The notes under the pieces are model-generated. The model made no database searches, was not told where the DNA came from, and worked only from the letters and a program-made list of their open reading frames with translations. The position numbers were made by a program, and so were the translations under genes. Positions 63,759 through 64,000 of a stretch of 64,000 nucleotides of DNA are shown here, one piece after another (positions within the stretch are counted from its first letter, which is position 1; the number at the start of each line of letters is the position of its first letter). This DNA comes from Escherichia coli (GTDB lineage: Bacteria; Pseudomonadota; Gammaproteobacteria; Enterobacterales; Enterobacteriaceae), in the NCBI RefSeq assembly GCF_003334815.1, contig NZ_QOWO01000018.1. The stretch is one strand, 5' to 3'.

Positions 63759-64000
63759 TGAACCGCCCCGGAAATCCTGGAGACTAAACTCCCTGAGAAA
63801 GAGGTAAACAGGATGACTAAAAATACTCGTTTTTCCCCCGAAATCCGTCAGCGGGCGATTCGTATGGTTCTGGAAAGTCAGGATGAATATGACTCACAGT
63901 GGGCGGCAATTTGTTCCATTGCCCCAAAGATTGGCTGTACGCCGGAGACTCTGCGTGTCTGGGTTCGCCAGCATGAGCGGGATACCGGGGGCGGTGATGG
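63759..64000 (+). mobile_element. Left end of an IS3-family insertion sequence (IS629/IS3411-like), continues beyond window
   Basis: Terminal sequence TGAACCGCCCC... at 63759 followed 54 nt later by the orfA start. Confidence 0.65.
63813..64000 (+). CDS. IS3-family transposase OrfA (partial, 5' end)
   Basis: MTKNTRFSPEIRQRAIRMVLESQDEYDSQWAAICSIAPKIGCTPETLRVWVRQHERDTGG, HTH-containing OrfA N-terminus; open to window end. Confidence 0.7.
   Translation, partial: MTKNTRFSPEIRQRAIRMVLESQDEYDSQWAAICSIAPKIGCTPETLRVWVRQHERDTGGGD

Follow-up and report, generated by a model that had tools for sequence, protein, structure and literature searches.

An IS629-type insertion sequence upstream of ykgA in a rare lineage of Escherichia coli

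INTRODUCTION

The Escherichia coli DNA analyzed here, a stretch of 64,000 nucleotides referred to below as the window, ends within an insertion sequence (IS) on the upstream side of ykgA. Which element is this, when did it arrive, and does its presence matter for ykgA?

Elements of the IS3 family transpose via a circular copy, which is pasted into a new site with duplication of 3 to 4 bp of the target. OrfA and the fusion protein OrfAB, a DDE transposase made by a -1 frameshift, bind the terminal inverted repeats. One member, IS629, comes from Shigella sonnei and is abundant in E. coli O157:H7, with IS1203 and IS3411 as isoforms.

We consider it very probable that a copy of an IS629 isoform was pasted upstream of ykgA recently and with little consequence for this gene. 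The case is one of a known element at an unremarkable, previously unrecorded site.

RESULTS

The left end of an IS3-family element in the window

The first-pass annotation of this DNA had reported a terminal repeat and the N terminus of an OrfA at the right end of the window, and both were found. The left inverted repeat (TGAACCGCCCCGG...) begins at position 63759, from which the window reads TGAACCGCCCCGGAAATCC... (TGAACCGCCCCGGAAATCCTGGAGACTAAACTCCCTGAGAAAGAGGTAAACAGG in a longer reading). It opens with TG, as expected for the left terminal repeat of an IS3-family element. The reading frame that starts from the ATG at 63813 is open to the end of the window, and its translation is MTKNTRFSPEIRQRAIRMVLESQDEYDSQWAAICSIAPKIGCTPETLRVWVRQHERDTGGGDG. 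This 62-aa fragment of OrfA matched Pfam HTH_Tnp_1 with an E value of 1.2e-6, corresponding to the N-terminal helix-turn-helix of the IS3 family; an NCBIfam search with the fragment alone gave no match.

Taken alone, the tip of the repeat is weak evidence, with its 13-mer occurring at chance-level frequency when two mismatches are allowed. The identity over all 242 nt of the visible element is beyond chance. These nucleotides matched 23,677 places in 3,632 of the 5,426 complete E. coli genomes, at up to 100% identity (E value of 8e-123), and the matched places are annotated as coding sequences for "IS3 family transposase" or "IS3-like element IS1203 family transposase." According to a copy search, the window contains a single copy of the IS. 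The coordinates of the features considered here are collected in Table 1. If complete, the element would end at about position 65068.

Table 1. Features around the insertion point, in window coordinates
Feature	Position	Strand	Basis
ykgA, Rob/SoxS-like AraC-family regulator, 283 aa from ATG 63654	62803..63654	-	ORF list, annotation
Best sigma-70-like site before ykgA (predicted), TTGATA-16 nt-TATAAC, 10/12	63694..63721	-	Relaxed consensus scan
GTC, target triplet, with a second copy predicted at the right end	63756..63758		Empty site; 3-bp duplications of the copies
Left 242 nt of a 1310-bp IS629/IS1203-type (IS3 family) IS	63759..64000	+	Sequence identity to complete copies
Left inverted repeat (IRL), TGAACCGCCCCGGAAATCCTGGAGA	63759..63783	+	Pairs with the right ends of full-length copies with an identical left end
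Transposase OrfA, first 62 codons (108 aa in complete copies), helix-turn-helix part	63813..64000	+	Translation, Pfam

The window also carries fdeC/eaeH, encoding an inverse autotransporter adhesin (60699 to 62663, + strand). Its ORF is 654 aa long versus 1,418 aa for the full-length alleles, with an internal in-frame deletion of 2,292 bp (764 codons). The exact 654-aa FdeC product is rare, being present on 13 contigs and in the complete genome 52F4, with a pseudogene flag by PGAP.

Identity of the element

Since the window shows only the first 242 nt of the element, copies identical across these nucleotides were characterized instead. The 242 nt are 100% identical to positions 2501 to 2742 of contig L008 (strain NCTC11121) and to positions 13061 to 13302 of a draft contig, L004, and they have 1 mismatch with the O157:H7 copy named "IS1203 family." The copy of NCTC11121 (L008, 2501 to 3810) is 1310 bp long and flanked by the 3-bp duplication CTT. 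It is also identical across all 643 nt visible in the sister draft contig L004, where the element occupies the same locus as in the window. Its right end reads TGAACCGCCCCGGGTTTCCTGGAGA in the inward direction and matches the left end at 22 of 25 positions, the first 13 perfectly. It encodes an OrfA of 108 aa, with a run of six A residues at the stop codon of orfA, and an OrfB of 296 aa in the -1 frame. The OrfAB fusion reconstructed from this complete copy scored 364 bits against the NCBIfam model "IS3 family transposase" (cutoff, 160), and the Rfam ALIL frameshift pseudoknot was found in it with 120 bits (gathering score, 50). The OrfB of copies identical in the visible part has rve domains. 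The exact fused OrfAB product of the reconstructed element has no record, and the exact 108-aa OrfA product, for which the depositor name is "IS3 family IS1203 transposase ORF A," is on record on only 12 to 20 contigs.

We then compared seven full-length copies with this left end (L008, L009, L002, and L014 to L017). All seven are 1310 bp long, end in CA, encode OrfB, and have a right repeat with the common tip and a 22/25 match. Target duplications of 3 bp (CTT, AAG, CCA, AAT, and AAC) flank five of them, and no duplication was found for the other two (L016 and L017). The copy in L014 is identical to that in L008 throughout.

Under the ISfinder rule, copies count as isoforms when their nucleotide identity with the named element is 95% or higher. 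The full-length copy showed 98.9% identity with the IS629 annotated in phage BP-4795, 98.2% with the "insertion sequence: IS3 family IS629" of Stx2 phages, and 96.9% with the O157:H7 copy named IS1203 family by PGAP. Thus, the L008 copy, 1310 bp in length, is above 95% identity to IS629 elements as annotated by depositors. IS1203 and IS3411 have been described as isoforms of IS629, with subtypes 4 to 5% apart, and the target duplications of IS629 are 3 to 4 bp (PMC3271280). Because of the 98.2 to 98.9% identity to annotated IS629 copies, together with this literature on isoforms, the element is, as judged from its sequence, an isoform of IS629 within the IS3 family, with IS629, IS1203, and IS3411 as candidate names. 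The assignment to an IS3-family element of the IS629/IS3411 type made at first pass is borne out by the same identity values.

The complete copies thus resemble IS629 and its isoforms in their length of 1310 bp, their imperfect TG...CA repeats and 3-bp duplications, their OrfA and OrfB joined through a -1 frameshift, and their ALIL pseudoknot. The element in the window differs in being a sequence variant, at a site unrecorded among complete genomes.

The mismatches of this variant are unevenly distributed over the first 643 nt of the IS, the part covered by the comparison (window, 63759 to 64000, together with L004, 13061 to 13703). Relative to the O157 "IS1203 family" copy, there is 1 mismatch in nt 1 to 320 and there are 14 in nt 321 to 643; relative to the copy of strain AR_0089, there are 13 mismatches in nt 1 to 165 and 4 in nt 166 to 643. 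Such a mosaic pattern suggests recombination between IS629 isoforms.

Insertion point and age of the insertion

Alignment with uninterrupted DNA of K-12 and of a sister strain showed that homology ends at 63758 to 63760, the uncertainty arising because TG is common to the tip of the IS and to the target. The alignment places the tip at 63759 ± 2 nt, and it is fixed at 63759 since the ends of the family are TG...CA. The boundary proposed earlier at 63759 is therefore correct, being where homology to the empty site ends. In K-12 and in the sister contig L003 (GCA_037967415.1), the empty site reads ...GCACTGGTAGCGTC followed directly by TGCTTCGTTGTCCCCG...; in the short form seen in sister genomes, ...GGTAGCGTC is followed by TGCTTCG..., and the window switches to the IS after GTC. 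A resemblance of the target to the left repeat of the IS itself was considered and rejected: the alignment score of 16 was reached by 14% of random 40-nt windows, as expected by chance.

Next, we examined which genomes have the filled site. The identical filled junction was present in the draft assembly GCA_965212685.1, in which the contig (L004) stops 643 nt into the IS. The filled junction was read on this one draft contig, with which up to 3 similar contigs are grouped. The left junction did not occur in any of the 5,426 complete E. coli genomes, and exact-pattern scans found 0 matches to it in the JGI metagenomes and the GTDB representative genomes. The empty site was found in the sister contig L003, together with the rare 654-aa variant of FdeC/EaeH, and in the complete genome 52F4, together with the fdeC deletion.

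Since sister genomes with the fdeC deletion keep the empty site, the insertion would be recent, and its absence from the 5,426 complete genomes points to a recent and lineage-specific event as well. By these sequence comparisons, the insertion is recent and nested in a lineage already carrying the fdeC deletion. We propose that one copy of an IS629 isoform was pasted into the intergenic DNA before ykgA, between the two halves of the short empty site given above, after the 2,292-bp in-frame deletion in fdeC/eaeH had occurred. The element had been called a strain-specific marker at first pass, and this description agrees with the counts, 0 of 5,426 complete genomes and one draft contig on which the junction was read. 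The junction marks a clone within a rare E. coli lineage, characterized by the in-frame deletion in fdeC and IS629 upstream of ykgA.

The part of the element beyond the window

The window reaches neither the remaining 1,068 nt of the element, with its right repeat, nor the target duplication, so that the completeness of the copy and its contiguity with the rclC side are inferred. A complete copy would have about 1,068 further nt after position 64000, ending in ...CCCGGGGCGGTTCA (...AGGAAACCCGGGGCGGTTCA in another reading). The right end would then be followed by GTC-TGCTTCGTTGTCCCCG (GTC TGCTTCGTTGTCCCCGAAAATAG), i.e., by the duplicated GTC. The predicted right junction (GGGGCGGTTCA-N0-8-TGCTTCGTTG...) gave 0 matches in an exact-pattern scan of the JGI metagenomes. 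Among the contigs found through the lineage-specific FdeC, RclR, and OrfA products, none crosses the IS, the best one being L004 with its 643 nt.

The visible end could instead belong to a truncated or rearranged copy, at the breakpoint of an IS-mediated deletion or inversion or next to a flanking deletion, in which case the ykgA-rclC intergenic region would not continue on the far side of the element. The right end was found in none of the contigs retrieved, but draft contigs ending within a multicopy IS are a normal outcome of assembly. Two of the seven full-length copies elsewhere have no duplication, and adjacent deletions are known from IS629 with the IEE protein (PMC9330008). Against this, the sister draft contig shows at least 643 intact nt, identical to the complete copy, and the left junction consists of a clean IRL tip exactly where homology to the empty site ends. 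We therefore regard a truncated or rearranged copy as unlikely, even though contigs of the same lineage in Logan fit neither a plain filled nor a plain empty site, and we keep to the insertion of a complete copy as the preferred reading.

In these Logan contigs (SRR25056245, SRR25064170, and SRR25064885), coverage stops 6 nt short of the insertion point and begins again 25 nt beyond it, and none of the contig ends carries IS bases. The gap is exactly 31 nt, which is the k of the assembler: contigs L005 and L007 end at window position 63752, and contigs L012 and L013 start at the position corresponding to L003 13086. These end points are not what a filled site, an empty site, or a simple mixture of both would produce. 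Natural single-nucleotide polymorphisms were rejected as the cause of the breaks, as the allele differences of AR_0089 are at the wrong positions. The gap suggests a second allele joined at both end points or a mixed population.

Start codon and putative promoter of ykgA

The IS lies on the promoter side of ykgA, as had been claimed, with its left end 72 to 105 nt upstream of the start, and the exact distance depends on the start codon. The longest ORF of ykgA starts from a GTG at 63687 and encodes 294 aa. The ATG at 63654 is the likelier start, because the 283-aa product is the one used by gene callers and PGAP, because this start makes YkgA colinear with the N terminus of the Rob profile, and because a GGAG is found 6 nt upstream of it. 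The NCBIfam RobA-like match of YkgA itself scores below the cutoff. The earlier figure of 72 bp is arithmetically right for the GTG, but the likelier ATG gives 105 bp (104 nt in between).

The best sigma-70-like site before ykgA came from a relaxed consensus scan (Table 1). A stricter promoter scan listed no site at this position because its -10 hexamer lacks the final T. If this site is the promoter, the core promoter, the ribosome-binding site, and the ORF of ykgA would all be intact.

Predicted effect of the insertion on ykgA

The left end of the IS faces ykgA, and the transposase gene reads away from it. The first-pass annotation had suggested that the element may provide outward promoter activity. 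A consensus scan of the 242 nt of the IS in the window found no promoter-like site of at least 7/12 reading toward ykgA, and on the ykgA-directed strand of the whole identical IS copy, no site of at least 9/12 was found. The outward -35 from which hybrid promoters form in the IS3 family belongs to the right repeat (PMC9330008), and in the present orientation the right repeat is directed away from ykgA. With no promoter-like site directed toward ykgA and the left end facing it, the idea of the IS as a promoter donor is therefore unsupported, and as far as consensus scanning can tell, ykgA has no outward promoter borne by the IS.

IS911, the model element of the IS3 family, likewise presumably transposes by copy-out-paste-in via a circle, with OrfA and with OrfAB made by frameshifting, but it differs from the element described here in subgroup and sequence. 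Its junction promoter combines a -35 of the right repeat with a -10 of the left repeat. No such promoter was found by consensus scan to span a modeled IRR-GTC-IRL junction.

The insertion might nevertheless alter ykgA expression meaningfully, either through an outward promoter at its left end or because upstream operator or activator sites were cut off. The IS begins just 37 nt ahead of the predicted -35 hexamer and 105 nt from the ATG, hybrid promoters are possible with elements of the IS3 family (PMC9330008), and IS elements have landed in the neighborhood of ykgA several times. However, no site directed toward ykgA reached the thresholds given above, the outward -35 of the family points the other way, and the candidate core promoter, the ribosome-binding site, and the ORF of ykgA are all intact. 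It is possible that upstream control DNA of ykgA was displaced. To our knowledge, ykgA has no known regulator sites, and this counts against an effect of the IS on its expression. Taking these points together, we judge a meaningful change in expression to be quite improbable. Still further down in likelihood, and in our view very improbable, is the idea that the insertion rewires ykgA by removing upstream control DNA and so alters the stress or efflux phenotype of the lineage; if true, it would mean that a Rob/SoxS-like regulator beside the rcl genes for reactive-chlorine resistance has been rewired in a rare lineage.

The preferred reading remains that of an insertion with little consequence. 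The inserted left end, with its divergent transposase gene, would face ykgA, and the DNA once upstream of the predicted -35 would have been pushed 1.3 kb off. The consequence for ykgA is probably small, with the start codon, the ribosome-binding site, and the best core-promoter candidate left in place and no IS-borne promoter predicted to read into the gene. Unless ykgA expression is altered, no new biology is implied.

Other IS insertions in the eaeH-ykgA neighborhood

The eaeH-ykgA region is a recurrent target of IS elements. It has been hit independently at least three times, by the IS3 of K-12, by the IS629-like element of the AR_0089 type, and by the present copy. In K-12 MG1655, the element between eaeH and ykgA likewise belongs to the IS3 family and occupies the same small neighborhood. 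However, it is IS3 proper, lies on the other side of ykgA, and cuts off the 3' ends of eaeH as well as ykgA, whereas in the window the two genes keep open ORFs, with the IS on the upstream side of ykgA. AR_0089, FDN-4, SA186, and others carry the same type of IS as the window (98.4% identical) in the same orientation, with the 3-bp duplication CCA. That insertion (L002, 4225 to 5534 in AR_0089), found in seven complete genomes, interrupts the 5' coding end of ykgA and is an independent event 135 bp away from the present one, which is intergenic.

Just past the right end of the window, in a K-12-like background, an aldo/keto reductase gene is reduced to a 3' remnant (L001, 3558 to 3686; L024, 15457 to 15585). 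The gene is intact in AR_0089 (L002, 5816 to 6685), and in other strains it is divergent to ykgA. Given this remnant, the IS would sit in a former divergent promoter region in which the other gene was already dead.
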